From the sequence record PZ534511.1: DNA of 64,000 bases. One strand, written 5' to 3'. Position numbers and translations under genes: made by a program. The notes below the pieces were generated by a model that saw only the letters and a program-made list of their open reading frames with translations, was not told where the DNA came from and did no database searches. Origin of the DNA: a phage. This document shows positions 26,411-61,616 of this stretch, piece after piece. Each line of letters opens with the position of its first letter. The stretch's first letter is position 1.

Positions 26411-26439
26411 ATTTTACCAAATTTTGTAACAATAGTCAA
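26411..26439 (-). promoter_or_regulatory. Sigma70-like promoter (TTGACT-17-TAAAAT)
   Basis: Just downstream of fibre-gene terminator and upstream of baseplate J-like gene. Confidence 0.45.
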
Positions 26440-26445
26440 TCTGAG

Positions 26446-26473
26446 CATAAAAATAAACCCCGCCGAAGCGGGG
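26446..26473 (-). terminator. Rho-independent terminator
   Basis: CCCCGC-cgaa-GCGGGG then TTTATTTTTATG on minus strand; same stem-loop as at 319-334. Confidence 0.6.
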
Positions 26474-26482
26474 CTTTAAAGG

Positions 26483-29400
26483 TTAGTCGTGAGACTCGTT
26501 CCAAGGTCCCTGGAAGCTAGAGTTTGAACGACTTACTATCACAGTAGGACAGGATATTGTAACACCTGTTATAGCTGAGGTGGACCAGCGTGTGTAAATT
26601 TCAACAATAATGTCTATGGTCTGTTCACCCAGCCCTGTTATCCCGACTGCACACATACCATCGTTGTCGTTACCATACTTCTTGCCAGCGAGCAACTGGT
26701 GCCCCGCTATCCACACATTCAACTGGGAGCCTCCTAGAGTTCCGTTAAGCTTAAAGAAGAATGTTACGTTCTTACCTTGTCCTTGAACGTTATCCACGTA
26801 TCTCCATCTCCAACGGCAAACCTGCTGCTGAGAGTTGTATACTGGAGGACAGTCACCGTAGGTCTTGTGTGCAACTATTGCACCTTCGAACTGGTTAGCA
26901 CGAATAACAGAAGCCTCTACACGCCCACGGAAGGTACCTCCGGTTGCATCTATGGTGCCCCTAAAGCTACCGTTATTGGCATAAACATCCCCACGGAAGG
27001 TACCACTGGTGGCGTTAACTGCCCCTGTGAAGTTACCAGAACTGGCGTTGATGTTGCCTTTCACCCATACATCCATAAATTGGGCGTGCCCGTTCTTGTT
27101 AATATACCAACCGTATTTATGGTACCCGTTGCCATCGTAGTTGTTTGACGAAATTTCTTGTGCGATCTTGGCAGAAGAGATCGTGCCATTCTCTATAAAA
27201 GCGTCTTTCAAGAACGCTTGGTTGTTCTTGATTGCGAAAGCAAGGGTTGCTGTTCCATTTCCGGGGTTGTATACCGCAAAGTTGTTTGCACTAACCATGA
27301 AGTAGGATTGAACTTGGCCCCCAGACCCTTCCATCCCCAACTGGATACCTGCAACATATTTATTCCCTGCGGAGTCTACCTGTATTTTTGTGCCCCATTG
27401 AGCATTTACTTTACCCTCTAAGTCGGTTACAGCCTTAGATGTTGTAGCTACTGCAGCCCTAAGCTCAGATACATCCCCAACATCATTGATGATCTCCTGC
27501 TTAGCGACAGCAAGTTCTTGACGAATAGCTGACGCTGTGCCGTTGATAAGGTCCACAGTGGCTTTGTTGGTATCGGAAATTGTAGCATCCAGCGCTGTTT
27601 TTGTGGAGGTCAGTTTTCCATCCAAAGCATCAATCGCTTGCTTGTTGGTAGAGATCTCCCCACGTGCAGAAGTTATTTGCTCTGACAGTGCAGATGTTTT
27701 CTGATTCAACAAGTCAGTGGTGGCCTTGTTGGTATTGGCAATCAAGGTGTTGAGGTCAGTTTTTGCGGTAGTTATCTTGCCGTCAAGGGTGGTATAGTTT
27801 TTAGATACCGTCGCGTTTGTCTGACTAATCTTTTGATCCAGAGTTTCAGATGTCCTGTTCAAAAGATCTACAGTGGCTTGGTTAGTGCTCAAGATGCTTG
27901 CGTCAAGTTCTGTTCTCTGAGTATTGATCTTACCATCCAGAGTTTTATCTCCGGCTAAATACCCGCTCTCAACTCCCCCTATCTGCTCTACCAGCTCACC
28001 TTTGGCGGCAACCAATTTCTCATCTAAAGCCTCTGTCTTTTTGTTCAGAAGATCAGTAGTTGCTTTATTGGTTGTCTCGATTAGAGATGCCAGTCTGCCA
28101 CTTTCAGTGTTCAGATCGTTGGTGAATTTGTTCTGTGCAGCAACAAGTTTCCTATCCAGCGCTGTAATGTTACCATTGACATCTTCAAACTTCTGAGTTG
28201 TTTCTGTAACTACCGCACCTATTCTGTCCCCAAGTTGCTGGAACGCTTCATCTACCCTACCATCCATGTACCTGTTAAGTTCTGTGACACGATTTTCAAC
28301 CTCTTCAATAGAGGAATCCAAAGTGCTCATCAACTCTTTATAAGTTTCTGTCTTTTTGAATTCAGCATCTATCTGAGGCATCAAATCCTCAATAGAGGTG
28401 TAGCAGCGTGCAGCGCATTCTACAAACTGAGAACTACCAAAAGCGTTTGTGGTTCGAATATACCAATAATAAACCTTATCGTTCTGCAGACCTTCAGATG
28501 TCCAAGTTGAACCAACACCCATACGGGTGGCGTTTGAAGTAACGGTTGCATCACTGGTGTCTGGCAACCTTGTCATACCGGATGTCCAAAAGTCATACTG
28601 GGTGCTAACACTTGCTAAATCCCTACTATGCGGAATCAAGGTGATAGCAAAGTATCCTTGCTTAACCTCTACAGAAACCGGAGCTTCAGGTGCCTGAATG
28701 TTAAACTCACAATACGCTTCTGGAGATACACCACCTTTATAAGATGTTGCAACCACGGTTGCTGTGTATGACCCTTTGGTCAAACCTTCTACTCTGACAA
28801 ACTGCTCAACTGTCTGTGCTGTCCAAACAATCTCTCCGTTCTTTCTTACCTGCACAATATTTTGAGCGTAAGTCCCAACGTTGTCCCAAGCCAAAACACC
28901 GTGAGTTACTTCCCCAGCTTGGAGAACGGAGTATCTGAAGTTTTGCGGTTGAGCTACACCAGATGGAGATATCGGAATATCTACATTGCCAGAATCCGGA
29001 AGTTGCCCTGTGGCATCATTCCACTCTTTAGCATCTTGACGAAGTTTTACCTTGACACCACCCTTTTTGGTAAACTCCCATTCAAGAACCCTCATTTCTT
29101 GGCCCACTATACCTATACTTGGAAGGTTCATTGTAACGTAACGACCAGGTTTAAATTTAAAACCTCGCATATTGCAGGTGACTTCAATAATCCTGCCAGC
29201 TCTCGCGCGTCTTAAGAAGATTGCAGAAACACGCTGAGCTTGATAAGGGCTGGTAACAAAGCGATAGTCTATATCGATTATCTTTCTTTCTCCATCCTTC
29301 TCTATCCACTCTGGGACAAACACTGATGGAAAATCTGTTTCAGAATACCCTTTGGTCGGACTAGTGAATCTGCCGGTTATTGTGTTGGATCTTTTGTCAA

Positions 29401-31890: not shown

Positions 31891-31950
31891 TGTGCCTCCG
31901 GGTTAAACAATCATGATAGCTATTTTACCAGATTTTAAGTTAATACGCAA

Positions 31951-31982
31951 TACAAACAAAAAGCCCCCGCCGAAGCGAGGGC
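31951..31982 (-). terminator. Rho-independent terminator
   Basis: Hairpin GCCCCCGCcgaaGCGAGGGC (one mismatch) then TTTTTGTTTG. Confidence 0.5.
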
Positions 31983-31989
31983 AAAACAG

Positions 31990-34900
31990 TTACTTCAGTT
32001 TCTCTTGCAACCCAGTAACAACCTCTGTCAATTTTTTAACCTGCTCCTCAAGGGCGGTTATTTTATCATCTTGTTCTCTGCAAACCTGAACAAGCAATCC
32101 TGTTACAGCCGCATAGTCAACATTATAGAATCTTTCCTCGGTCATCAGAGGAATACCATCTTGAGTAGGACCAGGAACCTCTTTCCTTTTCACGAAAGAA
32201 CCAACCGCTTCAGGCAATGCTTCCATAACCTCTTGAGCAATTACCCCCGCGTGAGGCATACCATTCTCTTTTAGAGTGTAGGTATAGCCTTTCATCTTAC
32301 GGATAGCTTCCAACGCGTTAGGAATAACCTCTATGTTATCCTTCAGGTCACGGTCAGAGCTCTGGCTGACAGCGGTGCACTCTACTACGCCGTTGACAGC
32401 AAAGTACCTTGACTTGGCCTCATCTGTCTTAGCACCACAATGCCATACCCAACTGGCAGATGTAGCGTTGTCGTTTATCTGAAACTCAAGCACGTTCTTC
32501 CTGTCTGCGCCATTACCCCAGTAGTACATTCTGCCTGTATTAGAAGGCATGTTGGAAGTGTTGGTAACATCGGTCCCACCACCTGTATGTATCATGAACT
32601 CTGGGTCAAGATTGGAACCTGCGGTTTTAAGAGTAATTCCCTTACCACCAAGCTGCTGCCAAGGTCCCCATGTGAAAACACTACCTATTGTTGTTCCATA
32701 ACGCAGGAATTTTTCCCCAAGATATGATATATACTCCTGTACGCAACTCTCTGGAACATTGGCGTAGTTCCTGTACACGATAAGCGTACCTGCCCGGGAG
32801 CATGGGTAGTTTCTATCAGGTGTGGCTTGAGCATTGGCCTCCTGATGATAAAAACCTTCCCTATCCCCTTTGTAGTCGTTAAGGTCATTAATCCCCAGAC
32901 CTTGCCCTCTGTGTTGTATGACCTTGTTCCACGCTCTATGGTTACCACCCTCGATAGATCTGGTGTATAACTGATCAAGGCGTCCAGCCATTTGGAAAGC
33001 ATAGTTTCCAGAGAACGCCACAGACAGTCCACCAACAACCATCGAGCCTTCTGGTCCGTTAACATTACCCGCCATTATTTTTGACGGGTTATTAGACCCA
33101 AACTGGTTGTTCCAGTCTCCACCAGTATGACATACAAAACCACCAGGGGCCGAGAAAGTACCGTCTTTGTTGAAATTGTAGAATCTGTGAGCTGTGCCCA
33201 CAACATCGCGAACAATAACTTGACCAGCTTCTGGGGTAGATCTGAACTCTGCCTGACCTTTGAGGCCAGCACCATTACCGCATTTAGAGGTAAACGTACC
33301 GTTAGTTAGATCCTCTGTTCCATCTGATGCACACTGGAATCCTGCATTAGAGAATAACGCCTTTCTAGGGCTGCCATAGCACAAATAGTCAATACCGTCA
33401 GCCCATAGTTCGACTTTAGGCATGTTCATTTTGCTCATCACCGCATAGCGTTCAGCAGTGCCTATATAGTGCCACTGTGTGCCGCCGCCAGTGTAGAACC
33501 CAGAGGTACCTTTGAAGTCAACAATAGGTCTGGTGTTGGTATTGTTATCTCCAAGAACAGCAAGATTCAAATCTGCTGACTGGAGAGGCGCAACAAACTT
33601 AACACCGTCCTGATTGTCTGTTACAGCTCCGACCTGGTAATCTTGCTCTCTGGTAAACACTTCTACAACATTTCTACTTGCGTATACGCTGACAGGGAAA
33701 GCACGAGCCTCTACATAGAAAGCAACATACTCTTGTTTACCCCTTGTTGGAGCAACCATCCCAAGAAGTGCTTTTTCATTCTGGTAGAAATTTACTACCC
33801 CGTAGAAAGAGTCTCCTCTGTCTGTCCAGCCCCCAGTTCTGTAATGGCACTGCAGAGTAGCGCAGTTCATAGGGTCACTGCCGGATGACGATCTGGTAAC
33901 TATGGTAATATCAGTACCAGTTGCTGGAGCATAGTACGGATCTGTTCTAACGATGATTGGGTAGTATTTCCCATCTTCCATCCCTGCAGTTCTTGGCAGT
34001 GTTAAGAAATCTTTGACACCCGCAGCTATAGGAACTTTGAACAGATTCTGAGCATCTGCCAGGGTTGTAGCCCCAGTGCCACCTGCGGCGTGAGATAAAG
34101 GTTCCCACTTGGCCTTCCGGTTGTTATAAACACCCCATTCCAGAGTGCCGTTACCGGACTCATCCATCCCACCATCCCAGACGACCATCTTGGCGGCTTT
34201 CTTGGACCCCCAGAAGCCTCTTTCTGCTCCTGAACTACGAATCCACTCTCCAAGTCCCCAGTTTGTCAGCTGACCAGTAAGATCCCCAACCTGCATGTAT
34301 TTAGGGCAGTCTAACACGCCGTCTTCGCGTAAACCTAAATATCTATGAGTTTCAGATCCTTTTGCACCTTTGTGCAGGTGGATTGTCAACCAAGCCTTAT
34401 TGTCGTTTCTTACCTCAGAATAGATCCTATATCCATGCTCAAGGACACCGTCAGTATTATATTTATCTCCATGGAGAATACCTGAGGCCGATTTAACATC
34501 TCCCGAGTATTGAGCTAAGTAAAGGTGCCCGAAGGCTGGCGAGTTGTTTTTACCAAGGCCAATATGAGATCTGAAGGTATCATCGTTACGAGGTCTGACC
34601 ATCGGCTGCCATGCAGTCCACTGATTTGTGTTGGCCTGATAGGTTCTCAAATACCAAACATCTACGTTAGAGAATGGATAGTATTCCTGACGACAACCTG
34701 TACCGCCGTTAGCATTGTTCTGCCAAACAATCAAGTGACCAGCACCAGAACCTGCAGGGTAACCATTTGCCTCAGTTGCATTAGCAGTCATCGGCTGGTA
34801 GTATATACCATCCTGATTACCAGTCAAATTATTGATATTGAAATTTGCATCAAGCGCAGCACGCTGCTTATAGAAAGCACCGATATTGATACGGACTCCA

Positions 34901-42823: not shown

Positions 42824-42852
42824 ATTGTATCATAAAATAGCCGTTTTTACAA
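42824..42852 (-). promoter_or_regulatory. Sigma70-like promoter (TTGTAA-17-TACAAT)
   Basis: Immediately after tape-measure terminator, upstream of baseplate genes. Confidence 0.35.
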
Positions 42853-42855: not shown

Positions 42856-42883
42856 CGATAAAATAAAGGGGGCCGGAGCCCCC
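42856..42883 (-). terminator. Rho-independent terminator
   Basis: GGGGGC-cgga-GCCCCC then TTTATTTTAT on minus strand. Confidence 0.6.
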
Positions 42884-42896
42884 CCTGCACAGTTTA

Positions 42897-45240: not shown

Positions 45241-45282
45241 TCATAATAAAAAGGGCCAGATCCCAGAAAAGGAATCCGGCCC
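45241..45282 (-). terminator. Terminator/attenuator between chaperone and tape-measure genes
   Basis: Imperfect 9-bp hairpin GGGCCAGAT..ATCCGGCCC then TTTTTATTATG. Confidence 0.4.
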
Positions 45283-45287
45283 TTAGA

Positions 45288-45547: not shown

Positions 45548-46021
45548 TTATTCCTGCTCTTCCGGAGTCTGATCCAGATTGTTCACCTGCTGAATCATAC
45601 CCATCTGCTGTAACATCTCCAGAAGGCTTCCTAAACCGTCTTGTGTGAAAAAACAGCCGTAGTTAACCTCCAGAACCTTACCTGCCAGCTTAATCATCTC
45701 CAGCAGATGCCCTGCAAACACAACATCCGGGTTAAGCCTATCCACACCATCTACGGTAATATCTTCGAACAAGATTTTAAATAGCTCTTCAATGGAGTTA
45801 TCATCAAGTTCTTGGAACAGGTAAGCCAGGGCTGTAGGAAGGACCTCTGCCATATTCTGACCACCTGAGAGAATAGATCCACCGATAGCACCTAGCGGGA
45901 CAGCCACAATCTTACCGATTTTAGGCATGTTTTTCATTGCTTTCATCGGCCCCCAGTGGGTGATCACAAAGTTGTGCCCTGCTAAATCAATCTCTGTTGT
46001 AGGTCTAAAGTTTATAGCCAT
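45548..46021 (-). CDS. Tail assembly chaperone (gpG-like)
   Basis: Position between tube and tape measure genes; 157 aa acidic. Confidence 0.45.
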   Translation of the reverse strand: MAINFRPTTEIDLAGHNFVITHWGPMKAMKNMPKIGKIVAVPLGAIGGSILSGGQNMAEVLPTALAYLFQELDDNSIEELFKILFEDITVDGVDRLNPDVVFAGHLLEMIKLAGKVLEVNYGCFFTQDGLGSLLEMLQQMGMIQQVNNLDQTPEEQE

Positions 46022-46064
46022 TTTATAGCATCCTTATTAGTCATGTTGTGCACCATATTTGTGT

Positions 46065-46093
46065 ATTTTACCATGATTATGGTGCATTGTCAA
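46065..46093 (-). promoter_or_regulatory. Sigma70-like promoter (TTGACA-17-TAAAAT)
   Basis: Consensus hexamers after tube-gene terminator, upstream of chaperone/tape-measure genes. Confidence 0.5.
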
Positions 46094-46130
46094 TTTAACC
46101 TTTCAAGCAATTCAAGAACGTGTGTCAAAA

Positions 46131-46164
46131 CCATAAAAGCAAAAAGCCCCACCCGAAGGTGAGG
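46131..46164 (-). terminator. Rho-independent terminator
   Basis: Hairpin GCCTCACC-ttcg-GGTGGGGC (one mismatch) then TTTTTGCTTTT. Confidence 0.5.
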
Positions 46165-46183
46165 CTTATGCTAAAGTGTGCCC

Positions 46184-46657
46184 TTAAATAATACCTGCAA
46201 GACCTGCGAGGCCAGTAAGAGCACCAGTGATGTTATCACGGTTGAGCCATGCATCCAGAATACCGATATCCCAGTCCAGTTGACCTACTTCGGTTCCGTA
46301 AGTCAGGTCAGGCTGTTTCTGGATCCAACCGATTGTGGAAATACCAGGGCCCTGGCTACCTTCCAGCAGAACCGGGAAGAATACCAGGCCAGTAATAGAT
46401 GCCTGTTTCTGCCAGTCAGAAAGGTAAGCGTTCCATACAGAAGTGTTCTGCAAAGATACAGTCATAACACCGGATTGGTTACGGGACAGAGCCGCAGACA
46501 TTTCACCATCCACACCGACGTGAGGATAAATGTTGTCTTCGTTTCTTGAAACAACAATCTTGGTGTCAGCAGCGAAGCCAGTGACACGCTGCTGCATCAG
46601 ATACAGTTTGACCTTTTTAGGGTCATACGCATAAGGAGTTAAAATTTGAGTTTCCAT
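46184..46657 (-). CDS. Tail tube protein
   Basis: 157 aa directly downstream of sheath candidate; terminator follows. Confidence 0.45.
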   Translation of the reverse strand: METQILTPYAYDPKKVKLYLMQQRVTGFAADTKIVVSRNEDNIYPHVGVDGEMSAALSRNQSGVMTVSLQNTSVWNAYLSDWQKQASITGLVFFPVLLEGSQGPGISTIGWIQKQPDLTYGTEVGQLDWDIGILDAWLNRDNITGALTGLAGLAGII

Positions 46658-49620: not shown

Positions 49621-50298
49621 TTAAAAACTGCGTTTGCGTCTTGGGTGGCGAGGAGGTTGGTTATTTAGACCACTGATAGGTGTAATCCCCTGGACATCGA
49701 ACGGTCCGTTGCTGTTTTCATTAAATTTAACCCGAATTCCTTCGTCTACACGAACACCACCAATGATAATCATTCTGCTGTAAGCATCTAGCTCAGAATC
49801 TACATAGTCTGGGTGTGCCAGCAGCCAATCAAGGAAATCCTTCCATTGGGCGTAGGAAGATCCACCACGAATCTCTATGGTCTCATCACCTATTTTTTCC
49901 AGACGGGAAGTTATACTTGCATTACCACTGGACACTTCCTGCATCATCAGCCACCGCACAAGCTGCACAAGCACATTGTACTTAAGCAGGGGCAGCTTAT
50001 CAGGATCTGCCGGATAATTTAGTTTCAACTTCTCCATGTCAAGGAATGTTTTAATTACCTCATCAGGGAGGGTTTCCTCATCAACATTGCCAAGTAACAA
50101 CCTCATAATATTAATAAGAGGTTGGTCTGGATCAGGTTCCGGAGGTACAGGATCTTCTTTTGGTGGTTCTTCTGGGGTATCGACTACACCATCATGGTTA
50201 GGCGGTGACGGGATAATCTCTTCATCTTCATACCATGCCATTTGAAAATACCTCGTAAAAATAAAGCCCCATTCCTGATTTGGAAGGGGCCTTAACAA
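49621..50298 (-). CDS. Virion structural protein with Pro/acidic-rich N-terminal region
   Basis: Track ORF; PPKEDPVPPEPDPDQP; true start may be internal. Confidence 0.4.
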   Translation of the reverse strand: MLRPLPNQEWGFIFTRYFQMAWYEDEEIIPSPPNHDGVVDTPEEPPKEDPVPPEPDPDQPLINIMRLLLGNVDEETLPDEVIKTFLDMEKLKLNYPADPDKLPLLKYNVLVQLVRWLMMQEVSSGNASITSRLEKIGDETIEIRGGSSYAQWKDFLDWLLAHPDYVDSELDAYSRMIIIGGVRVDEGIRVKFNENSNGPFDVQGITPISGLNNQPPRHPRRKRSF

Positions 50299-51149: not shown

Positions 51150-51184
51150 AATAAATAAAAAGGGGAGGGGAGAACCCCCTCCCC
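51150..51184 (-). terminator. Strong rho-independent terminator after major capsid gene
   Basis: 9-bp GC stem GGGGAGGGG/CCCCTCCCC then TTTTTATTTATT on minus strand. Confidence 0.7.
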
Positions 51185-52677: not shown

Positions 52678-53655
52678 TTATTTGTTAGATTCTGCACGTG
52701 CACGAGCAAGTGCTTTTGCAACGTTTTCAGCAAGAATTTCTTCTGCGGATTTCGCAATATCATCCACAACAGGTTCGCCATCATTACCATGTTCAGTGGT
52801 GGCAAACTCTTCTTTAGTTTTATGCACCTCTGCTTCCAGCTCTTCAATTTTTGCTTGAGCTTTCTCCAGCATAGCTACGATAGGTTCGTTAGCTTTTTCC
52901 AGCATGAAGTTAACCAGGGTTGCGTGATCTTCTTCACCAACAAAGCTTAAAGCTTGAGCCTTAGTCAGCATTTTAGCTTTTTCAACTTCAACCTGGGCCT
53001 TGATGATTTCTTCAGCTTTACTCTGGGTTGCTTTCAGCTCTTCTACTTGCTTCAGCAGATCCAGATACTCTTTAGTTTTGGTTACGTCCACCGGATTCTC
53101 CTCGGTATTTGCGGATTTTGCAACATCATCCACCTCGGTAGTTTTATCCACCTCAGCAGGTTCCTGTACCGCCTTGATCAGGTTCCCTTCTTTATCGAAG
53201 AGATCAGCGGTTACTTGTTCAAAAATCTGTTGTGTTTTTAACAGGCTGTATTGATCTACCACACTAAGCTGCTTGCCTTCTTTTGCAGCTTTATGAATGG
53301 TCACGTTATCACAACGCTCTTCCAGCCATGCAATACAAGACTCTGCGTCAGCTTGCGCCCATTCCCAATCAGGATGCTCTTTAGCCCAAGCCTCCTCTTC
53401 AATCTCAAAACCAAGCATGTGTGCAAGTGCTTTAGCATCATCATACCACATATCGAAGAAACGACGCAGGTATTCTTCAAAACTAAGCTCCACAGTAACT
53501 TGGCGAAGTGCCTTAACAATGTCGTCTGTTAACTGCTCAGGCTTAAGATCACTCTTCATTAAAAGAGATACAGGTCTGTTGTTAGCGCTATAGCCTTGCG
53601 CCTTATGGCACAGGGCAATCCCCTTCTCTTTAATAGTAATCGTTTTTTCAGACAT
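52678..53655 (-). CDS. Scaffolding protein
   Basis: 325 aa, acidic, helical/coiled-coil character; between portal region and decoration gene. Confidence 0.5.
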   Translation of the reverse strand: MSEKTITIKEKGIALCHKAQGYSANNRPVSLLMKSDLKPEQLTDDIVKALRQVTVELSFEEYLRRFFDMWYDDAKALAHMLGFEIEEEAWAKEHPDWEWAQADAESCIAWLEERCDNVTIHKAAKEGKQLSVVDQYSLLKTQQIFEQVTADLFDKEGNLIKAVQEPAEVDKTTEVDDVAKSANTEENPVDVTKTKEYLDLLKQVEELKATQSKAEEIIKAQVEVEKAKMLTKAQALSFVGEEDHATLVNFMLEKANEPIVAMLEKAQAKIEELEAEVHKTKEEFATTEHGNDGEPVVDDIAKSAEEILAENVAKALARARAESNK

Positions 53656-54230
53656 TATTCATTGCCCTCTTCTACAACACTGATTCCGAAGTTTACGTTG
53701 GTAATTTCACCAGTTTCTTCATCAACATTACCTGTTGCCTGAATGCTTAGGCCACCAACAATGCCAGCCTTCTTAGCTTCCCATAGTTCAGGATTATTGT
53801 ATTTAACTTTAGCAACCCAAGAGCCAGCCTTGATGACCTGCTCAGTGCCAATTACTACAACATCAAACTCTTCTTGAATCCACGTCTTTTCAATAGTGAA
53901 AGCATCTGTAGAGGTCAAGTGAAAAAGGTTTTCAGAAACTAGGCCTGCGGCGTATGCTGCGTCCCAGTTATCTTTAGCCTTTTTGATGGTGTCTTTACTC
54001 ATCCACTCACCGTGAGCATCTTTAGTGTCAGGCTCGTAGATGATTTCGTAGGAAATCATTTCTTCCTGTGGCATCTTATTCCCCATGTGGATTATTTTAT
54101 CACGCCAAAGGAGGTTTTGCAACCCCCTGTGTTGATAATTTTTAATTTTCCATGTTGGATATGGAATTATCTCTGGTTGATGACATCTTAGAAGTGCCGT
54201 TACCAGTGGATCCTGCAGCCATTCCATCAC
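53655..54230 (-). CDS. Head morphogenesis/prohead protease candidate
   Basis: Position between portal and scaffold; N-terminus overlaps portal 3' end so start is probably internal. Confidence 0.3.
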   Translation of the reverse strand: MMEWLQDPLVTALLRCHQPEIIPYPTWKIKNYQHRGLQNLLWRDKIIHMGNKMPQEEMISYEIIYEPDTKDAHGEWMSKDTIKKAKDNWDAAYAAGLVSENLFHLTSTDAFTIEKTWIQEEFDVVVIGTEQVIKAGSWVAKVKYNNPELWEAKKAGIVGGLSIQATGNVDEETGEITNVNFGISVVEEGNE

Positions 54231-55698: not shown

Positions 55699-55798
55699 AA
55701 GCTTTACCCCTCAAAACAGTATAACAAAATAGCCCTCGTCAGAGGGCTAGTATCTCCAATTACTTTATTGTACCACATCTAATTAAGATTGGCAACAC

Positions 55799-56605
55799 TT
55801 AGATAAAACGCTTGAACATAGAAGGTGATGAGATTGATGGAATCACACAAGGAAGTGCTACCTCCTCTTTCTCCAGGAAATTAATCGCAGAAGCTACGCA
55901 GTCGGCCCAGTCGTCTTTTCTGTTAAATGTTGATCTTTCCCCGTTGAATTTTTCAAGTTCAGTCAGAAATGCTTCCAGAGTATCAGGATGGAAACTGGAT
56001 TTTACAATCCTCACCATTCCTTGTTGGGCAAGATTGGCAAAAGGTGAGAACCTTGTCAGTTTAGACTTGTTGGAAGGCATTGGGTCTTCTTCAACCCTGA
56101 ACCCTTCGGCAAGCAAGGATCTGGAGGAGGTTAAGAACTCACTCTTACCTGCCTGCCCTGGGTCCACAGAGAAGACGATTATGCAATCATCACCATCGAA
56201 CTGCGCCTGTTTCCTGATGATCACATCTCGTTCACCAGCCTTTTTACAGAACTTGCCTTCCAGACCTGTGGAATACCTCCCGTCATCCACGTTCTCAGGA
56301 CAATAATCACCGGACAGGTAATAAAAGCCGTCGCTATCTTTACTTACCTTAATACTGGCAGTAAAGTCAGGAAATTTATTACCGGAAGTTCTCTCGGTTC
56401 CTGCCTTATCCCATGCCCTGCAAGATACTGACCCAAGAGGTACTCTATCGGCATCACGAAGGAAAGATCTTTGAAAATAGTTTGCACCCTCAGGCTTTGC
56501 AAACCAGTTACCATGGAGAAGCTGAGCTTTTTCCAGCTCTGGTAGACCTTCAAGGAAAGCAAGGTATTCTGGGTTATCTCTCAGGCAGACAGGATTATCG
56601 AATCC
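55799..56605 (-). CDS. terL: Terminase large subunit, exon 3 (nuclease domain)
   Basis: Frame open from in-frame stop at 56606-56608; GFDNPVCLRD..LLHGNWFAKPEG..SVSCRAWDKAG..DDWADCVASAINFL; track ORF 55799..56290 is its 3' part. Confidence 0.7.
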   Translation of the reverse strand, partial: GFDNPVCLRDNPEYLAFLEGLPELEKAQLLHGNWFAKPEGANYFQRSFLRDADRVPLGSVSCRAWDKAGTERTSGNKFPDFTASIKVSKDSDGFYYLSGDYCPENVDDGRYSTGLEGKFCKKAGERDVIIRKQAQFDGDDCIIVFSVDPGQAGKSEFLTSSRSLLAEGFRVEEDPMPSNKSKLTRFSPFANLAQQGMVRIVKSSFHPDTLEAFLTELEKFNGERSTFNRKDDWADCVASAINFLEKEEVALPCVIPSISSPSMFKRFI

Positions 56606-57578
56606 TTATATTCAAAGGTGGTCGCAACACCACCTTCCGCACCTTTACGTGCTGCTGCATGTTACCATGCAGAGTAGACTATATCACCACCCATTTCAGG
56701 GTGCTTCGCTTTTCGAGCGCCATAAGCTTGCGCCCTACTCCCTCTCGGGATAGTCGTTGAACTACATTACCAATCGTAATTGTTTGAAATATAGGTGTAA
56801 GTCTTACGGTCTTTTATTCCTTTAACAACACTAAAACTTACTCCCCACTTCTTAGCTATTTTATTGACACACAAGACCTTATCACTAAGATCCTCGCAGA
56901 TACCTATTATCTTGTGCTCACTTATCCGATTAGAGGTTGGCACTTTTCTAAAGTTAAACTCTTTAGAAATATCTGGGTATACTGAGCCATTCTTTATACC
57001 ACTTACAAGTGGTTGATTGACACCGAACATTTCACAAATGTCTTTTACCCTTGCGCCTTGTTCTAACAGCCTACATATTTCAAGAGCAGTGGCATCATCC
57101 AGGGACCTGTATTTATTGACATAGTCCTTTTTAAGTCCCATTTCATGAGCGTGATGTGTGTTTTCCTCAGGCGTTGTCCACTCAAGGTTCCATGCGGCGT
57201 TATTCAACTTATTACCATCTAGGTGGTTTACTTGAGTTTTCACGCTGGGATTGTCATTATCAACAAAAGTCATAGCAATCACTCTGTGAACGAGCACTTG
57301 GAACTTTTTACCGTCCTCGCACAAAGTTACCATAGCATAGCCAGTCTTTTTCTGCACATTAGGATGGAGGAATTTATTAGAATACAGACTGTAAATTCTG
57401 CCATCGTATGTAGCACAATAATGATTGTAGCCTAAAAAGCCTAAATTTTTCATTTCAAACATCTCCCTACTACAGGTTCGGAAGGGTAATTATAGCTGCT
57501 GATTGTCCGTTTAGCAATCGGATTTCCCAGCAATTAACGAAGTTATTCGACGTGCATTTCTGCACGAAGCCACTATCA
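56606..57578 (-). mobile_element. Group I intron 2 in terL, with HNH endonuclease ORF
   Basis: P AATTGCTGGGAAA (~57523-57535), Q AATCAGCAGC (~57495-57504, compensatory to P), R GTTCAACGACTATCC (~56748-56762), S GATATAGTC (~56677-56685); boundaries approximate. Confidence 0.65.
56767..57462 (-). CDS. HNH homing endonuclease (HNH_3-like), intron-encoded
   Basis: NHLDGNKLNNAAWNLEWTTPEEN motif; C-terminal HTH-like region; between Q and R elements of intron 2. Confidence 0.75.
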   Translation of the reverse strand: MFEMKNLGFLGYNHYCATYDGRIYSLYSNKFLHPNVQKKTGYAMVTLCEDGKKFQVLVHRVIAMTFVDNDNPSVKTQVNHLDGNKLNNAAWNLEWTTPEENTHHAHEMGLKKDYVNKYRSLDDATALEICRLLEQGARVKDICEMFGVNQPLVSGIKNGSVYPDISKEFNFRKVPTSNRISEHKIIGICEDLSDKVLCVNKIAKKWGVSFSVVKGIKDRKTYTYISNNYDW

Positions 57579-57902
57579 TTTAATGGTTGCGCCTATAAAC
57601 GAGAATGACAACGGTCTTGGCTTGATCTCAACACCCAGTCCGTTAACCGTGGTGTATTTCTCTATCAACTCTTCTTTAGAGTCTCCCCAGATAAATTCAC
57701 CGTCGCGTCGGATAAAATATCTTTTCTTACCGCATTTCTCCGGATCTGGATACCCTTCATCGTCCAACCACCATCTAACCAGTTTGGCAAGCATGTGTTC
57801 TGAATCGGGGTTACAGCTGATAACCATTCTTGATGGATACTTTGACTGAGATCGCAGACGAGACATCAGATAGTCTATCTGCTCCCATTCGAATTGTGTC
57901 GT
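57576..57902 (-). CDS. terL: Terminase large subunit, exon 2 (ATPase C-terminal part)
   Basis: Frame open from stop near 57903-57905: TTQFEWEQIDYLMSRLRSQSKYPSRMVISCNPD; exact 3' end (5' splice site) probably just upstream of 57579. Confidence 0.55.
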   Translation of the reverse strand, partial: TTQFEWEQIDYLMSRLRSQSKYPSRMVISCNPDSEHMLAKLVRWWLDDEGYPDPEKCGKKRYFIRRDGEFIWGDSKEELIEKYTTVNGLGVEIKPRPLSFSFIGATIK

Positions 57903-58782
57903 TTATGTTCGGGCAAGGTCGCTAGTCTTGCCCCGCCATTTTCAGGCAGCTGCATGTCTCCATGCAGACCAGACTATATCTTATGAATGTGTAAATACTC
58001 TGCCGCTCTAAGAATAGTTTCCTCATCCTCTTGGAAGAAACCTAAAGCTCTGTTGCATTTATCACAAAGCAACCCTCTTACAGCACCAGTTTTATGGTCA
58101 TGATCAACACAAAAGAAATCTCTATACCCTTGCGTCCTATACTCATCAAGGGATATTCTACAAATGGCACACTTATGATCTTGATCTGAGAGTAGACGAT
58201 AGTATTCATCTTTTGTTATGTGAAATTTCTTCTCAATCTGATAAAACTTTTCACACATCTTACACCTGTTCGTAACCAGATATACTTTACCATAGTCACG
58301 TTTTGTGTAAAAACTATCAGCGAGCATACTTTCATGACAAGATTTGCATTCAAAAAGTTCACCTTTCTTCAGCAAGTCTTGAATAAACAATGCTGCGTCA
58401 TCTCTCTTAACCATATTTTTGTTTTTACGAGATCCACCCTTCCTGTAGTACATATAGCATTCCTTGCATGTACCTGAGTATCCATCCTTGCTCTTAGATG
58501 ATAAAAAGAAATCATCAATAGGTAGAACTCTTTGGCAATCCATACATTTTTTAGTATTACACATTCACCCTCCCGTTTCGAATCGCTTGATTCTACGTCT
58601 TTCGACTAGTCGTTGAACGTTCATCCTCTCGGATGCTTCGCTGCGGATTATCTAAATTAACACACTGTTACCATACCTTCGATCTCTCTTCGAAGCCTCT
58701 ATCATGTTACCATGACAGGTTGGTGGTGTCAATAATAAAGATTTCCCCGCAATTAGGGAGGTTTTACGAGAGCTACAAATTA
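57903..58782 (-). mobile_element. Group I intron 1 in terL, with HNH endonuclease ORF
   Basis: Minus-strand core elements: P AATTGCGGGGAAA (~58742-58754), Q AATCCGCAGC (~58640-58649), R GTTCAACGACTAGTC (~58604-58618), S AAGATATAGTC (~57972-57982); boundaries approximate. Confidence 0.7.
57974..58564 (-). CDS. HNH endonuclease (endonuclease VII-like) with CxxC zinc fingers, intron-encoded
   Basis: CVDHDHKTGAVRGLLCDKCNRALG motif; several CxxC pairs; between R and S elements of intron 1. Confidence 0.75.
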   Translation of the reverse strand: MCNTKKCMDCQRVLPIDDFFLSSKSKDGYSGTCKECYMYYRKGGSRKNKNMVKRDDAALFIQDLLKKGELFECKSCHESMLADSFYTKRDYGKVYLVTNRCKMCEKFYQIEKKFHITKDEYYRLLSDQDHKCAICRISLDEYRTQGYRDFFCVDHDHKTGAVRGLLCDKCNRALGFFQEDEETILRAAEYLHIHKI

Positions 58783-59208
58783 ACCCTCATCGAAGCAAAC
58801 CATGGTATACTCAAGCCCTTGATGGTTAAGCTTATCTTGTACATACTCCATGTGGCAGTATTTTACAACAGCTCCCTTTTTGCTTCTATCCCACTTGCCG
58901 GTGTTCGGATCAAACCGTGGAAAAATGAACTTATGATCCTTCTCTCTGAACTTTGGCTTAATGTTTTCAGGCAGATCACTATAAATAGCTACTGCTTTAG
59001 GCCATAGTCCACCCTCACCTTCCAACTGTGGGGTTGTTCTTCGGAACATAACCACAGAGCTGTGGGGGTCATCAATAATTTTAAGTGGCATCAATTGCAA
59101 GAGGAACGACTTGCCAGACCCTGCGGCACCGCCGATTACCAAAATATCTGCATCGTTTTCAAGGATCATCTTCTGCTTTTCAGAACACGGTCCGTAAATC
59201 TTAGACAT
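58780..59208 (-). CDS. terL: Terminase large subunit, exon 1 (ATPase N-terminal part)
   Basis: Walker A GGAAGSGKS; Walker B MVCFDE just before stop at 58780-58782, followed by intron P element. Confidence 0.75.
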   Translation of the reverse strand: MSKIYGPCSEKQKMILENDADILVIGGAAGSGKSFLLQLMPLKIIDDPHSSVVMFRRTTPQLEGEGGLWPKAVAIYSDLPENIKPKFREKDHKFIFPRFDPNTGKWDRSKKGAVVKYCHMEYVQDKLNHQGLEYTMVCFDEG

Positions 59209-59495
59209 TAACCTCTCTCCTTTGGAAACAGTGTTCTAATATAGTCTTGCAAAATGATCAATTTAGCTCTATCATTGCTACAAGACAGATTATTATCCCT
59301 CATAATGCCAGAATTCACTGCATCTGGCGCACCTTTCTTCAAAGGCATAGCTTTAGCAGGTGGTTTCATGGCACCTTCCGGGGGTTTAACAATCAACCTT
59401 CCTACATCAGGAGGGTCAATCTTGTATTCTCTCTCAACGCTGGTTGCACACCCACATAATAACAAGCACACAATAAACAGTGCAGCAACTCTCAT
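59208..59495 (-). CDS. Outer-membrane spanin (o-spanin, Rz1-like lipoprotein)
   Basis: Signal peptide with lipobox-like LLLCGC; Pro-rich mature region; overlaps i-spanin by 4 nt. Confidence 0.55.
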   Translation of the reverse strand: MRVAALFIVCLLLCGCATSVEREYKIDPPDVGRLIVKPPEGAMKPPAKAMPLKKGAPDAVNSGIMRDNNLSCSNDRAKLIILQDYIRTLFPKERG

Positions 59496-59890: not shown

Positions 59891-59900
59891 TTTAAGGCTC

Positions 59901-59939
59901 CAGAAACGAAAAAACCCCGCAGCTATGCAGCTAACGGGG
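59901..59939 (-). terminator. Rho-independent terminator
   Basis: CCCCG...CGGGG stem enclosing CAGCTATGCAGCTG, then TTTTTTCGTTTC. Confidence 0.45.
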
Positions 59940-59995
59940 CGGGTTAAAATTGAGTAACCTAAATAGATCGAAACTAACTAAAAGGAGACTAATAC

Positions 59996-60265
59996 TTATC
60001 GAGGCACTCGGTGGATGATTCTAACAGTAACTGCATTTTCATTCATCAAGTATGCATCTACATCTCTGTAAATATAAAACTTCTGCTCACTATCAACAAC
60101 ACAAGCTACTGCCCCTTCAGAGTTGTCTTCAAAAAAGACCACCACTGCATCGCAGCTGAGTTCATGATATGACTCTCGAAGATTTACAGCCAGAGGATTG
60201 AAATCGTCACGAAAATCTACAGTATGGGTTGGATTTACACGCTCTACAATTTTAAGTGTATACAT
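59996..60265 (-). CDS. Hypothetical protein (89 aa)
   Basis: Track ORF 59996..60355 would overlap tRNA-Pro; start set at internal ATG 60265 after AAGGAA. Confidence 0.45.
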   Translation of the reverse strand: MYTLKIVERVNPTHTVDFRDDFNPLAVNLRESYHELSCDAVVVFFEDNSEGAVACVVDSEQKFYIYRDVDAYLMNENAVTVRIIHRVPR

Positions 60266-60311
60266 TTTAAAGGTTCCTTTTGTTTGTATATGTTTAAAGT
60301 ATAACTGAAAG

Positions 60312-60388
60312 TGGTCTCCACGGAGTGATTCGAACACTCGACCTCCTGATCCCAAATCAGGCGCTCTACCAAGCTGAGCTACGCGGAG
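60312..60388 (-). tRNA. tRNA-Pro (anticodon UGG)
   Basis: Hand-folded cloverleaf: 7-bp acceptor CUCCGCG/CGUGGAG, T-loop GUUCGAAUC, anticodon loop UUUGGGA, encoded CCA. Confidence 0.7.
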
Positions 60389-60399
60389 TATTTATTATT

Positions 60400-60474
60400 T
60401 GGTGGCCCTGGGTGGAATTGAACCACCGTCTGGCGATTATGAGTCGCTTGCTTGAACCTTCCAGCTACAGGGCC
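60400..60474 (-). tRNA. tRNA-Met or Ile2 (anticodon CAU)
   Basis: Acceptor GGCCCUG/CAGGGCC, anticodon loop CUCAUAA, T-arm GGUGG-UUCAAUU-CCACC, encoded CCA. Confidence 0.65.
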
Positions 60475-60475
60475 A

Positions 60476-60551
60476 TGGTGCTGATAGCAGGACTCGAACC
60501 TGCAACCTATTGATTACAAATCAATTGCACTACCAATTGTGCTACATCAGC
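60476..60551 (-). tRNA. tRNA-Thr (anticodon UGU)
   Basis: Acceptor GCUGAUG, D-arm GCAC-AAUUGGUA-GUGC, anticodon loop UUUGUAA, T-loop UUCGAGU, CCA. Confidence 0.7.
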
Positions 60552-60556
60552 AAAAA

Positions 60557-60655
60557 GGTGCTAGGTGATGGAATCGAACCACCTATGTATTCAACGACTA
60601 CCTCGTCTATTTTCAGGATTAAAAATCCTCGCCCTTGCCAAAGGGCTTACCTAGC
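60557..60655 (-). tRNA. Atypical tRNA-like gene (about 99 nt; possible UUU anticodon; about 30-nt variable region)
   Basis: Perfect acceptor GCUAGGU/ACCUAGC, D-arm GCCC-UUUGGCAA-GGGC, T-arm GGUGG-UUCGAUU-CCAUC, but anticodon arm non-canonical and extra hairpin ACGAGGUAGUCGU; 3' CC only. Confidence 0.4.
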
Positions 60656-60753
60656 TCAGTATGTTGACCATGTTGCTAGTCGGCGATGACGACTGTAACA
60701 TTTGATAATCCGGTTCTGCTTCCGGCTTTCGCTTAATTACAAGGTCAACAATA

Positions 60754-60844
60754 TGGCTGAGGGTAATGGAATCGAACCATCATCGAGTCATCCTCAACGG
60801 GACGGTTTTCAAGACCGCTTGAGCACCATTGCTCCCTACCCTCA
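60754..60844 (-). tRNA. tRNA-Ser (anticodon UGA), long variable arm
   Basis: Acceptor UGAGGGU/ACCCUCA, anticodon loop CUUGAAA, long variable arm, T-loop UUCGAUU, CCA. Confidence 0.65.
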
Positions 60845-60958
60845 TTTATAAACAATACTGATAATGACACTGATTTTCGAGCAGTTAGTGACTAGTATAA
60901 ACGACGATAAATATCAATGCCATTATCTGTATGATTTATGCATTTAAAAATGTAAATT

Positions 60959-61045
60959 TGGTGGGGAGTGGTGGAGTCGAACCACCCGAGTCGCAATGAC
61001 AATAGATTTACAGTCTACACCGCTACCTCTACGGGATAACTCCCC
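60959..61045 (-). tRNA. tRNA-Tyr (anticodon GUA), long variable arm
   Basis: Acceptor GGGGAGU/ACUCCCC, anticodon loop CUGUAAA, T-arm GGUGG-UUCGACU-CCACC, CCA. Confidence 0.65.
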
Positions 61046-61049
61046 AATT

Positions 61050-61124
61050 TGGCACCCCGTACTGGACTCGAACCAGTGTCAACGGCTTAGAAGGCCGCTG
61101 CTTTATCCACTAAGCTAACAGGGC
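61050..61124 (-). tRNA. tRNA-Arg (anticodon UCU)
   Basis: Acceptor GCCCUGU/ACGGGGU (G-U pairs), D-arm GCUU-AGUGGAUAA-AGC, anticodon loop CUUCUAA, T-loop UUCGAGU, CCA. Confidence 0.65.
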
Positions 61125-61182
61125 ACTGGGTGGCTTTCTTTTACACCTTAGCCGCCAGAAAAGGTGGGAGACCATGTTTACA

Positions 61183-61211
61183 ATATTACACTGTTAAGCA
61201 AAGTTTGTCAA
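61183..61211 (-). promoter_or_regulatory. Sigma70-like promoter (TTGACA-17-TAATAT) for tRNA cluster
   Basis: About 60 nt upstream of tRNA-Arg. Confidence 0.45.
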
Positions 61212-61220
61212 GAAAATATT

Positions 61221-61559
61221 TTAACTATTGCCAACAGGCTGTATTTCTGTGGTAAATGGCATAAAAGGTGCTGGTTTTTCAGCCTCTTCTACTACCACCT
61301 CTTCCTCTTCACCGAACATCTCATCATATTCTTCCTGCATTCGGTCTGCCTTATCAAGAACATACTCTGCAATGCTTTGACGAATATTTTGTTTGGTTTT
61401 CGGGTCCAACATCAGCTCTCTTAAAACTTTGTGAGCTTCTGGAACCATCGCTATAAAAGATTCCTTCATATCAAGGATGTTCTTCTCTAGCTGAATGGCG
61501 TTGGACTCCTCTTTCAGAGGTCTGCCTCTACGGCGACGCTTTTTAGTTGTATCCGCCAT
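61221..61559 (-). CDS. Basic DNA-binding protein candidate (AT-hook-like N-terminus)
   Basis: Start at internal ATG 61559 after GGAGG and consensus promoter; N-terminus TTKKRRRRGRP; acidic C-terminus. Confidence 0.45.
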   Translation of the reverse strand: MADTTKKRRRRGRPLKEESNAIQLEKNILDMKESFIAMVPEAHKVLRELMLDPKTKQNIRQSIAEYVLDKADRMQEEYDEMFGEEEEVVVEEAEKPAPFMPFTTEIQPVGNS

Positions 61560-61587
61560 GTTTCCTCCATTATCACGTGATAGGTGG

Positions 61588-61616
61588 ATTTTATCATAGC
61601 AAATACTGATTGTCAA
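61588..61616 (-). promoter_or_regulatory. Sigma70-like promoter (TTGACA-17-TAAAAT)
   Basis: Consensus hexamers about 30 nt upstream of ATG 61559. Confidence 0.45.

Follow-up and report, generated by a model that had tools for sequence, protein, structure and literature searches.

By their sequence, the promoter-like sites that punctuate the late genes of the phage DNA studied here (the 64,000 nucleotides of record PZ534511.1, hereafter the window) are probably promoters of an rV5-like phage that are read by the σ70 RNA polymerase of the host. The window is ~97–98% identical to Escherichia phage rV5 (Vequintavirus), which identifies its source as an rV5-like coliphage, and its ~48-kb minus-strand structural-gene cluster contains eight putative promoters and, dispersed among them, about a dozen intrinsic terminators. 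The eight late promoters consist of TTGnnn, a 17-bp spacer ending in TGn, and TA(A/C)AAT, usually followed by A, i.e. a predicted partial −35 box combined with an extended −10 box. As far as can be judged from their motifs, the sites flagged in an earlier note on this DNA are genuine, non-random σ70-type promoter sequences, often paired with a terminator, within the structural-gene cluster; this is an ordinary finding.

Nearly everything reported here, namely the seven sites of that note (with another register for the one at 42824), the late motif and the majority of the terminators, is already published for rV5, a phage of the same species group, whose promoters and terminators were predicted by Kropinski et al. 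2013 (Virol J 10:76, Additional file 4/Table S4; GenBank DQ832317). The rV5 entries P036, P051, P074, PtRNA and P011 have the same sequences as in the window, P025 differs from its counterpart P25 by one −10 base, and P048 is aligned in Table S4 in another register than at 42824–42852. The rV5 listing also includes an eight-copy 'late' motif, TggTAaAAtA, and terminators t027–t064. The rV5 paper omits the promoter preceding the prohead-protease gene (54094–54122), the terminator at 26455–26476 and the terminator preceding ORF67.

Promoter sequences in the window

A loose scan for sites matching at least 9 of the 12 consensus positions stayed near the shuffled background (49 versus 35 expected, 31 versus 36 and 50 versus 34) and was uninformative alone, so that strict patterns were used instead. 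TTGACW-N17-TAWWAT has five exact matches against 0.13 expected, all on the minus strand (2118–2146, 26411–26439, 46065–46093, 61183–61211 and 61588–61616), a number that none of 100 shuffles reached; the first of them does not appear in the earlier note. The sites are better described by TTG-N17-TAMAAT with TGn in the spacer, for which there are nine matches against 0.17 expected (0/100 shuffles reach nine), all of them on the minus (gene) strand, in non-coding spacers shortly 5' of genes, with leaders of 18–68 nt between the −10 box and the start codon. The −35 to −10 spacing is exactly 17 bp at all nine. Their −35 hexamers all begin with TTG, with TTGACA at P051 and P74, TTGACT at P036 and three or four of six consensus positions elsewhere, and their −10 hexamers are TAAAAT or TACAAT, matching TATAAT at five of six positions. 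TG at −15/−14 is found at the eight late sites and at P74 and is missing at PtRNA and P25. The window contains 19 TGNTAMAAT 9-mers, and a TTG at 17-bp spacing accompanies exactly the nine that are located in spacers. The sequence TGNTAAAATA occurs seven times (0.78 expected), every copy being on the coding strand; in rV5, the late module, about one third of the genome, has six of the eight copies and two lie elsewhere, a suggestive but weak enrichment. One occurrence of TGATAAAATA, at 32059–32068 within ORF41, was treated as a chance match, as it is not in rV5 and has no TTG at 17 bp.

The eight late sites, all on the minus strand, are given here in the direction of transcription. P064 (55767–55795; TTGCCA-N14-TGG-TACAAT; 'late' P064 of rV5) lies upstream of terminator t064 (55730–55749, minus strand, −14.2 kcal/mol; t064ABC of rV5), which separates the terminase and portal genes; the resulting order of promoter, terminator and portal gene is odd for a productive promoter. 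P063 (54094–54122; TTGCAA-N14-TGA-TAAAATAA), absent from Table S4, occupies the spacer between the portal stop codon (54142) and the likely prohead-protease ATG (54074), a corrected start that we suggest for the latter gene; its TTGCAA and TGnTAAAATAA are kept in six of six genera. P056 (49586–49614; TTGCTT-N14-TGG-TAAAATA; 'late' P056 of rV5), also kept in all six genera, has an 18-nt leader to the neck/tail-completion gene and no terminator ahead. P051 (46065–46093; TTGACA-N14-TGG-TAAAATA; P051 of rV5), with a 43-nt leader to the tail-chaperone gene, is found in Vequintavirus only, the position being taken in the other genera by a different, conserved hairpin. P048 (42824–42852; TTGTAA-N14-TGA-TACAATA) starts 5 nt past the U-tract of t049, and the orthologous position reads TGnTAAAAT in four relatives and TGATAAACT in Hena1. 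P040 (31922–31950; TTGCGT-N14-TGG-TAAAATA; 'late' P040 of rV5) lies directly past the t041 U-tract. P036 (26411–26439; TTGACT-N14-TGG-TAAAATA; P036 of rV5) has a 33-nt leader to a baseplate-wedge gene, and its TGnTAAAATA is kept in six of six genera but its TTGACT is not. Finally, the −35 box of P030 (20080–20108; TTGCAT-N14-TGT-TAAAATA; 'late' P030 of rV5) overlaps the 3' end of a hairpin at 20108–20129 (−12.8 kcal/mol). Five of these sites, P064, P063, P056, P040 and P030, were absent from the earlier list.

The remaining sites appear to be ordinary promoters of the TTGACA type that serve tRNAs and small genes with no structural role. P74 (61588–61616, minus strand; TTGACA-N14-TGA-TAAAAT; P074 of rV5 in Table S4 and GenBank) has a 28-nt leader to ORF74; it is preceded by a GC hairpin (about 61621–61645) devoid of a U-tract and is not a late-gene promoter. 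PtRNA (61183–61211, minus strand; TTGACA-N17-TAATAT, no TG; PtRNA of rV5) lies directly 5' of the tRNA cluster at 60312–61124. P11 (4504–4532, plus strand; TTGACA-N14-TGA-TACGAT; P11 of rV5) precedes the Srd-like gene gp11 and has a divergent partner, P10 (4462–4490, minus strand; TTGACT-N17-TATAGT; P010 of rV5), and P25 (10578–10606, plus strand; TTGACA-N17-TATGAT; P025 of rV5) lies ~30 nt 5' of an ATG at 10637.

The earlier note had described five minus-strand sites as TTGACA/TTGACT-N17-TAAAAT/TAATAT, which is correct for those at 26411, 46065, 61183 and 61588; the site at 42824–42852 is actually TTGTAA-N17-TACAAT with an upstream TG and scores 9/12. At the two plus-strand sites TTGACA is perfect and the spacer is 17 bp long, but the −10 box reads TACGAT (4504, with TG) or TATGAT (10578). 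The title of the note places each site, and its text several of them, just after a terminator. This holds for 26411, whose −35 box lies 7 nt past the U-tract of a hairpin of −16.5 kcal/mol, and for 42824 (5 nt, −17.4 kcal/mol), and loosely for 46065 (~39 nt, −21.4 kcal/mol); only a stop codon precedes 61183, and the GC hairpin ahead of 61588 lacks a U-tract. The latter two belong to the tRNA cluster and to the small ORF74, not to capsid, tail or fibre genes.

Conservation across Vequintavirinae

We compared the orthologous spacers of Henunavirus, Seunavirus, Certrevirus, Mydovirus and phage W70, whose flanking proteins are 30–80% identical. Four promoter positions (before the protease, neck, ORF48 and wedge genes) recur in these five other Vequintavirinae genera, as do the terminators beside two of the four. 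Around the sites, the spacer DNA has become too different to align, while TT(G), the 17-bp spacing, TG at −15/−14 and TAAAAT(A) are nearly invariant. Among the 24 orthologous sites, the information content is 2.0 bits for the TT of the −35 box, 1.3 for its G, 2.0 for TG at −15/−14, 1.8–2.0 across TAAAAT and 1.5 at the following A; no other position exceeds 1.0 bit, and none exceeds 0.8 bits unless it belongs to the −35 hexamer or is the base that follows it. Of these sites, 20 have a 17-bp spacer and four a 16-bp spacer.

Within the late module, complete TTGACA or TTGACT −35 boxes are confined to Vequintavirus. On the late strand of this module in the remaining five genera, TTGACA-type sites either do not occur or are located within coding sequence. 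Where a site adjoins a terminator in CR9 and W70, the 'TT' of the −35 box simply belongs to the U-tract. The 'consensus' −35 box announced in the earlier note exists at only two late promoters and is missing at their orthologous positions, and the element common to the late sites across genera appears to be the extended −10 box, not a consensus −35 box. The conservation pattern fits recognition by σ70 through an extended −10 element.

In having TG at −15/−14, a weak −35 box and the A2 and T6 of the −10 hexamer, the late sites resemble the extended −10 (TGn) σ70 promoters of E. coli. They differ from these in that the hexamer is nearly always TAAAAT instead of TATAAT, the next base is a conserved A and the TTG of the −35 box is retained. 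Note that, to our knowledge, the conserved A following the −10 hexamer is not a recognised σ70 determinant. Within the subfamily, the early promoter of Certrevirus, AAAA(N3-4)TGTTGAC(N17-19)TATAAT (Buttimer et al. 2020, Antibiotics 9:352), is likewise a predicted σ70-like promoter of phages devoid of an RNA polymerase of their own; it differs from the late sites in its concentration in early/middle regions, its strong −35 box and its UP-like element. No late motif is given by Buttimer et al. 2020, the late-strand TGnTAAAAT sites of CR9 having been found in the present analysis.

Terminators and the proposed transcription of the late cluster

The intrinsic terminators of the cluster are GC-rich hairpins followed by a T-rich tract, located 3' of stop codons, with predicted energies of −12.8 to −26.1 kcal/mol; they lie on the minus strand unless stated otherwise. 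Such a hairpin stands directly ahead of each of five of the eight late-module promoters. Terminator t052 (46144–46167, −21.4 kcal/mol; t052 of rV5) lies 3' of the sheath and tube genes, t049 (42865–42886, −17.4 kcal/mol), kept in six of six genera, lies 3' of the tape-measure gene, t041 (31963–31982, −16.9 kcal/mol; t041 of rV5) precedes P040, and a terminator not listed in Table S4 (26455–26476, −16.5 kcal/mol) follows the fibre gene ORF37. Inspection of the orthologous spacers shows that the hairpins beside P048 and P036 are present in six of six genera with differing stem sequences.

Other terminators have no promoter behind them. This is the case for one at 59909–59940 (−16.9 kcal/mol, six U; not in Table S4), 20 nt before the start of the spanin-like ORF67, for t060 (51162–51184, −21.5 kcal/mol; t060 of rV5), directly 3' of the major capsid gene, a position at which relatives also carry terminators, for a terminator-like hairpin with a U-tract 3' of ORF58 (50256–50290, −15.5 kcal/mol), for t050 (45251–45284, −26.1 kcal/mol; t050 of rV5), which abuts the tape-measure ribosome-binding site, an arrangement kept in five of six genera, and for t028 (16942–16963, −14.9 kcal/mol; in Table S4), which precedes the 1875-aa ORF27. 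The late cluster is closed by the bidirectional t026/t027 (11259–11280, both strands). Since several terminators (before the tape-measure gene, ORF27 and ORF67, and after the capsid gene) are not followed by a promoter, read-through matters as much as re-initiation. The sequence pattern fits promoters at which the σ70 RNA polymerase of the host re-initiates behind terminators within the structural-gene cluster, as the earlier note proposed; the promoter-less terminators point to read-through in addition.

In the explanation that we favour, terminators placed after genes for abundant proteins (capsid, sheath/tube) and before genes for low-copy ones (tape measure) would lower downstream transcription, and the promoters lying 0–40 nt behind five hairpins would restart the next block, i.e. 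the chaperone, baseplate hub, wedge and fibre modules. The outcome would be a chain of semi-independent units, the levels of which would depend on how leaky each terminator and how strong each promoter is. Recognition by the E. coli σ70 holoenzyme, the efficiency of the terminators and the tuning of expression are what we infer from this arrangement. The earlier note had seen no gene for a phage RNA polymerase, and the rV5 annotation (GenBank/RefSeq) lists neither an RNA polymerase nor a sigma factor, in agreement with the rV5 paper (Kropinski et al. 2013). A hidden enzyme was considered in the form of a 676-aa 'DNA-directed RNA polymerase' encoded beside the DNA polymerase of Klebsiella phage KNP2; Pfam finds nothing in this protein, which has homologues in Hena1 and CR9; as rV5, W70 and the window all lack one, it is irrelevant to the present phage. 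For Vequintavirus, Vequintavirinae, rV5-like phages and PVP-SE1, a literature search for transcriptomes, start-site mapping or studies of late promoters yielded sequence-based predictions only; for rV5-like phages, the literature searched contains no mapped start sites, in vitro transcription or rifampicin data, and a full-text search with the motif strings returned unrelated papers only.

Other readings of the late motif

Near-optimal σ70 promoters should fire at once on naked DNA, so that late timing is not explained by sequence alone. It is conceivable, though unlikely, that the late sites form a distinct promoter class served by a phage factor that remodels or blocks region 4 of σ70 and spares extended −10 promoters; TTGACA-dependent early promoters and host promoters would then be shut off, and termination might be suppressed too. 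AsiA of T4 is proposed to act by such remodelling or blocking of region 4. The documented precedent is Thermus phage P23-45, which has no RNA polymerase of its own and transcribes its middle and late genes from extended −10 promoters, with gp39 and gp76 as the phage proteins involved; gp39 additionally suppresses intrinsic termination, an activity that would suit the terminator-rich late cluster described here. In line with this scheme, the part that is invariant in six of six genera is TGnTAAAATA, next to a weak −35 box (TTGCAA, TTGMTT, TTGTnn or TTTnnn), and TTGACA-type sites are missing from the late-strand spacers of the other five genera, whereas the predicted early promoters of rV5 and Certrevirus have a strong TTGAC. 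Six late-cluster terminators without a promoter behind them would also call for read-through or antitermination, and the Srd-like gp11 matches the PHROG families 'decoy of host sigma70' (2.8e-12) and 'Srd anti-sigma factor' (3.7e-10). However, the best PHROG family of gp11 is labelled 'HNH endonuclease' and Pfam finds nothing in it. Moreover, P23-45 promoters have no discernible −35 box, whereas the late sites keep TTG at exactly 17 bp, suggesting that region 4 still touches the DNA; beyond the late module, roughly a third of the rV5 promoters that have been published contain TG too, so that the classes are not cleanly separate, and the early set, having been chosen for TTGACA, suffers from ascertainment bias. 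Proteins like gp39 and gp76, known in P23-45, have been identified in no rV5-like phage, nor are homologues of AsiA, MotA, gp39 or gp76 reported, and we know of no MotA or AsiA in rV5. The TTGCTT of P056 is an unlikely T4 MotA box as well, since its TGCTT lies ~3 bp farther upstream than the T4 consensus would place it. We regard as similarly doubtful a broader version, in which TTGC(a/t)(a/t)-N14-TGnTAAAATA would define a late class throughout Vequintavirinae, timed by a gp39-like protein that remodels region 4 and/or antiterminates, with this control exerted at the conserved terminator-promoter cassettes ahead of ORF48 and the baseplate-wedge gene.

Still less probable is a T4-style late promoter, in which (G)TAAAATA would be the equivalent of TATAAATA, read by a gp55-like factor that makes no −35 contact. 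T4 late promoters (TATAAATA; gp55, gp33, gp45) do place an A/T-rich −10 8-mer before structural genes and share AAATA with the rV5 motif, and the rV5 authors themselves likened TggTAaAAtA to TATAAATA, without stressing the TTG-N17 spacing and without a cross-genus comparison. The 1.5 bits carried by the A after the hexamer and the six of eight TGNTAAAATA copies in the late module of rV5 point the same way. Unlike T4 late promoters, however, the present sites combine TG at −15/−14 with a conserved TTG at 17 bp, σ70 features for which a −10-only promoter of the gp55 type has no need, and a −35 element is recognisable throughout, being ambiguous only where TTG overlaps a terminator U-tract. Besides, none of the three exact copies of TATAAATA in the window is on the late strand; all three lie on the plus strand, in antisense orientation to the late genes. 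Homologues of gp55, gp33 or gp45 are not reported in the rV5 paper, and RefSeq annotates no sigma gene. That the sites are chance consensus matches devoid of promoter function is hardly credible. The near-background result of the loose scan does indicate that many weak matches are noise, but the strict patterns occur 10- to 50-fold above expectation, are wholly strand-biased and confined to spacers, and the sites are kept across genera even though the DNA around them has diverged too far to be aligned; these sequence data effectively refute the chance reading.

Host σ70 promoters thus remain our preferred reading of the late sites. The result carries little weight beyond annotation: to the rV5 paper it adds one missed promoter, two missed terminators and cross-genus comparative support for predictions based on the rV5 group. 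For the rV5-like coliphages, a large group used in therapy and biocontrol, it confirms that the structural-gene cluster is densely set with conserved, putatively host-type promoters and terminators.

A predicted promoter motif in the late-gene spacers

A sequence search with a 12-kb slice of the window returned 118 phage records matching over the full slice length at 95–99% identity, among them Escherichia phage V5/rV5 (DQ832317, NC_011041; genus Vequintavirus), whose coordinates parallel those of the window with an offset of ~2.2 kb. This offset is not constant: it differs by ~560 bp between positions 46 kb and 61.6 kb, pointing to an insertion or deletion somewhere within that interval. From ~11.3 to 59.9 kb, the minus strand carries spanin-like, terminase, portal, protease, capsid, sheath, tube, tape-measure, baseplate and fibre genes. 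The terminase large-subunit gene (56290–59208, minus) is in pieces, with HNH-type endonuclease ORFs between them (56767–57462 and 57974–58564). Seven tRNA-type genes lie at 60.3–61.1 kb; the seventh (60557–60655, minus, ~97–99 nt), flanked by tRNA-Thr and tRNA-Ser and unannotated in the original rV5 record, is labelled 'tRNA-???' by ARAGORN, with a 4-base anticodon (atcc), and has an Rfam tRNA score of 35.5 bits (gathering score 29).

The pattern TTGACW-N17-TAWWAT has five exact matches in the window, every one on the minus strand; 0.13 would be expected, and five were attained in none of 100 dinucleotide-preserving shuffles. They comprise four of the five minus-strand TTGACA/TTGACT sites listed in the earlier note (26411, 46065, 61183 and 61588) and one absent from its list (2118–2146, minus). 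The remaining listed site, 42824–42852, lacks these hexamers and is a weaker match (9/12), TTGTAA-N17-TACAAT with an upstream TG. In the two plus-strand sites (4504–4532 and 10578–10606), TTGACA is perfect and the spacer is 17 bp; their −10 boxes are TACGAT and TATGAT. The proposed position just after a terminator applies to 26411 and 42824 and, loosely, to 46065, where the U-tract of a hairpin lies 7, 5 and ~39 nt from the −35 box, respectively, and not to 61183, preceded only by a stop codon, or 61588, preceded by a GC hairpin devoid of U-tract; nor are these last two late-gene promoters, as they serve the tRNA cluster and the small ORF74. The observation is real and statistically solid, but its details are imprecise.

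When all late-cluster spacers of at least 30 nt were listed, a TGGTAAAATA-like box was found to recur. TGNTAAAATA occurs seven times in the window (0.78 expected), always on the minus strand. A fuller pattern, TTG-N17-TA(A/C)AAT with TGn as the last three spacer bases, has nine matches against 0.17 expected (no shuffle out of 100 reached nine), all in spacers immediately 5' of minus-strand genes, with 18–68 nt between the −10 box and the start codon. Eight of these predicted promoters lie in the structural-gene cluster: P030 (20080–20108), P036 (26411–26439), P040 (31922–31950), P048 (42824–42852), P051 (46065–46093), P056 (49586–49614), P063 (54094–54122) and P064 (55767–55795); the ninth, P74 (61588–61616), lies outside the late genes. 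The 9-mer TGNTAMAAT is present 19 times in the window and is accompanied by TTG at 17-bp spacing in exactly these nine promoters and at none of the other 10 sites, most of which are inside coding sequence by position.

For rV5, the type phage of the genus, the promoter finding is already published. Its GenBank record contains 'Sigma70-type promoter' features (P11, P51, P(tRNA), P74 and others) and Rho-independent terminators, and Kropinski et al. (2013) reported 33 promoters, 11 of them with extended −10 regions, 20 terminators and a MEME motif, TggTAaAAtA, with eight copies 5' of late genes 27–66 (P030, P036, P040, P048, P051, P055, P056 and P064). Their Table S4 includes P036, P051, P074, PtRNA, P011, P025 and, in another register, P048, so that every site named in the earlier note was already covered. 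Our analysis adds the conserved protease promoter (54094–54122), terminators at 26455–26476 and about 59909–59940, the conservation across genera, and the TTG at 17-bp spacing that sets the spacer sites apart from other 9-mer matches. A literature search found no experimental transcription mapping for any rV5-like phage.

Terminators and their order relative to promoters

Hairpin–U-tract terminators, whose predicted free energies range from −12.8 to −26.1 kcal/mol, are found before ORF67, directly before the tape-measure gene, and after the terminase, capsid, ORF58, tube, tape-measure, ORF41, ORF37, ORF31, ORF28 and ORF27 genes. Among the eight late sites, P030, P036, P040, P048 and P051 each follow a terminator hairpin; P056 and P063 do not. 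Six terminators have no promoter behind them, so that transcription of the genes that follow (ORF67 and terminase, portal, ORF59, ORF57, tape measure and ORF27) must depend on read-through. At 55730–55795 (minus), P064 (TTGCCA-N17-TACAAT, with TG) is followed by terminator t064 and then the portal gene; t064 begins 17 nt past the P064 −10 box and lies entirely within the first ~45 nt of the predicted transcript. Such an order might serve attenuation or the production of a short RNA; alternatively, P064 may be non-productive. Other genera have no spacer at this position.

Conservation across Vequintavirinae

We compared the structural regions of five relatives, Erwinia phage Hena1 (Henunavirus), Salmonella phage SSE121 (Seunavirus), Cronobacter phage CR9 (Certrevirus), Klebsiella phage KNP2 (Mydovirus) and Escherichia phage W70 (a further Vequintavirinae relative), whose structural proteins are 30–80% identical to those of the window. 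Each locus contains 3–5 copies of TGNTAAAATA, always on the late-gene strand. Four orthologous positions, those preceding the prohead-protease, neck (ORF56), ORF48 and baseplate-wedge (ORF36) genes, keep the promoter in every one of the six genera; the exception is a single position at which Hena1 reads TGATAAACT. Alignment of 24 orthologous sites on the −10 box gives 2.0 bits for each of the two T's at −35 and for the TG at −15/−14, 1.8–2.0 bits for the TAAAAT positions, 1.5 bits for the adjoining A, 1.3 bits for the G after the −35 TT, 0.5–1.0 bits for the second half of the −35 hexamer and the base that follows it, and at most 0.8 bits elsewhere. This pattern of conservation is what sigma-70 regions 4.2, 3.0 and 2.4 would be expected to leave as a footprint. 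In all six genera, terminators with differing stem sequences precede the ORF48 and wedge promoters, and five of the six also keep the promoter-less terminator that adjoins the ribosome-binding site of the tape-measure gene.

The TTGACA/TTGACT hexamers of P036 and P051 are not common to the relatives: the P036 position reads TTGCAA, TTTATA or TTTAAT, and the P051 position has, instead of a promoter, a different conserved hairpin. TTGACA-type matches in the relatives' late modules are almost all antisense or within coding sequence. The hairpin in the tube-chaperone spacer of the five other genera is GCCACAnGGATGTGGCC (related GCCTCAAGGATGAGGCC in W70), with ...CTCACGCATGGAT coming next in most; no promoter is present in these spacers (L003 12113–12193, L004 13060–13135, L005 15618–15690, L006 36414–36496, L007 15361–15442, all loci of the relatives). 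The Vequintavirus spacer (window 46021–46184) is twice as long and contains terminator t052 and the consensus promoter P051.

As annotated, the prohead-protease gene (rV5 ORF63; 53655–54230, minus) overlaps the portal gene by ~86 nt at its start, and homology to relatives sets in at residue 51–55 of this ORF. The ATG at 54074 is in frame, has GGGGAA before it and is 19 nt past the conserved promoter. It is the probable true start and would place this promoter in a real spacer. In four genera (L003 27814, L004 30300, L005 27855, L007 27367, plus strand), the ORF29 orthologue, a gene for a small 'membrane protein', opens with aTGYTAAAAT and is preceded by TTG at 17 bp, so that the promoter-like pattern overlaps both a conserved start codon and a conserved N-terminus (MLKF/MLKS). 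The pattern could be a coding-sequence coincidence or a promoter serving the fibre gene downstream.

Polymerase and late timing

The earlier note's interpretation, host-polymerase transcription with internal re-initiation tuning expression, is reasonable, and the comparative evidence supports part of it. The analysis directly shows the motif, its statistics, its placement and its conservation; which polymerase acts, how efficient the terminators are and whether they tune expression are inferred. RefSeq labels KNP2 gp004 (L006 3246–5276) a 'DNA-directed RNA polymerase'. A Pfam search gave no match for it, and the homologues in Hena1 and CR9 (59–73% identical) are annotated hypothetical; the label looks unsupported. 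No homologue was found in rV5, W70 or the window. Gp11 (4564–5541, plus), a 'Srd-like anti-sigma factor' described as Srd-like in rV5 (Kropinski et al. 2013), best matches a PHROG family labelled 'HNH endonuclease' (1.5e-109); its hits to the 'decoy of host sigma70' (2.8e-12) and 'Srd anti-sigma factor' (3.7e-10) families are weaker, and Pfam gave none. Its start is probably ATG 4564, 31 nt past P11, rather than TTG 4606, where the annotated rV5 start would fall provided that the local coordinate offset is valid.

Late timing is not explained by sequence alone. A mechanism of the T4 gp55 type is unlikely, given that the −35 and TG elements are conserved, that exact TATAAATA is missing from the late strand of the window and that rV5 was reported to have no gp33, gp45 or gp55 homologues (Kropinski et al. 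2013). Possibly, in the manner of gp39 of phage P23-45, a phage factor disfavours −35-dependent promoters and/or suppresses termination. Such a factor would be consistent with −35 boxes that are weak and variable, with a TG that is invariant and with the large number of terminators that lack a promoter; the retention of TTG at −35 and the occurrence of TG in many non-late rV5 promoters weaken the case for it. The best-supported reading of the sequence data is that host sigma-70 polymerase transcribes the late genes from promoters of the extended −10 type that also carry a partial −35 box. These promoters would alternate with leaky intrinsic terminators, which may lower expression after abundant-protein genes and before low-copy genes.
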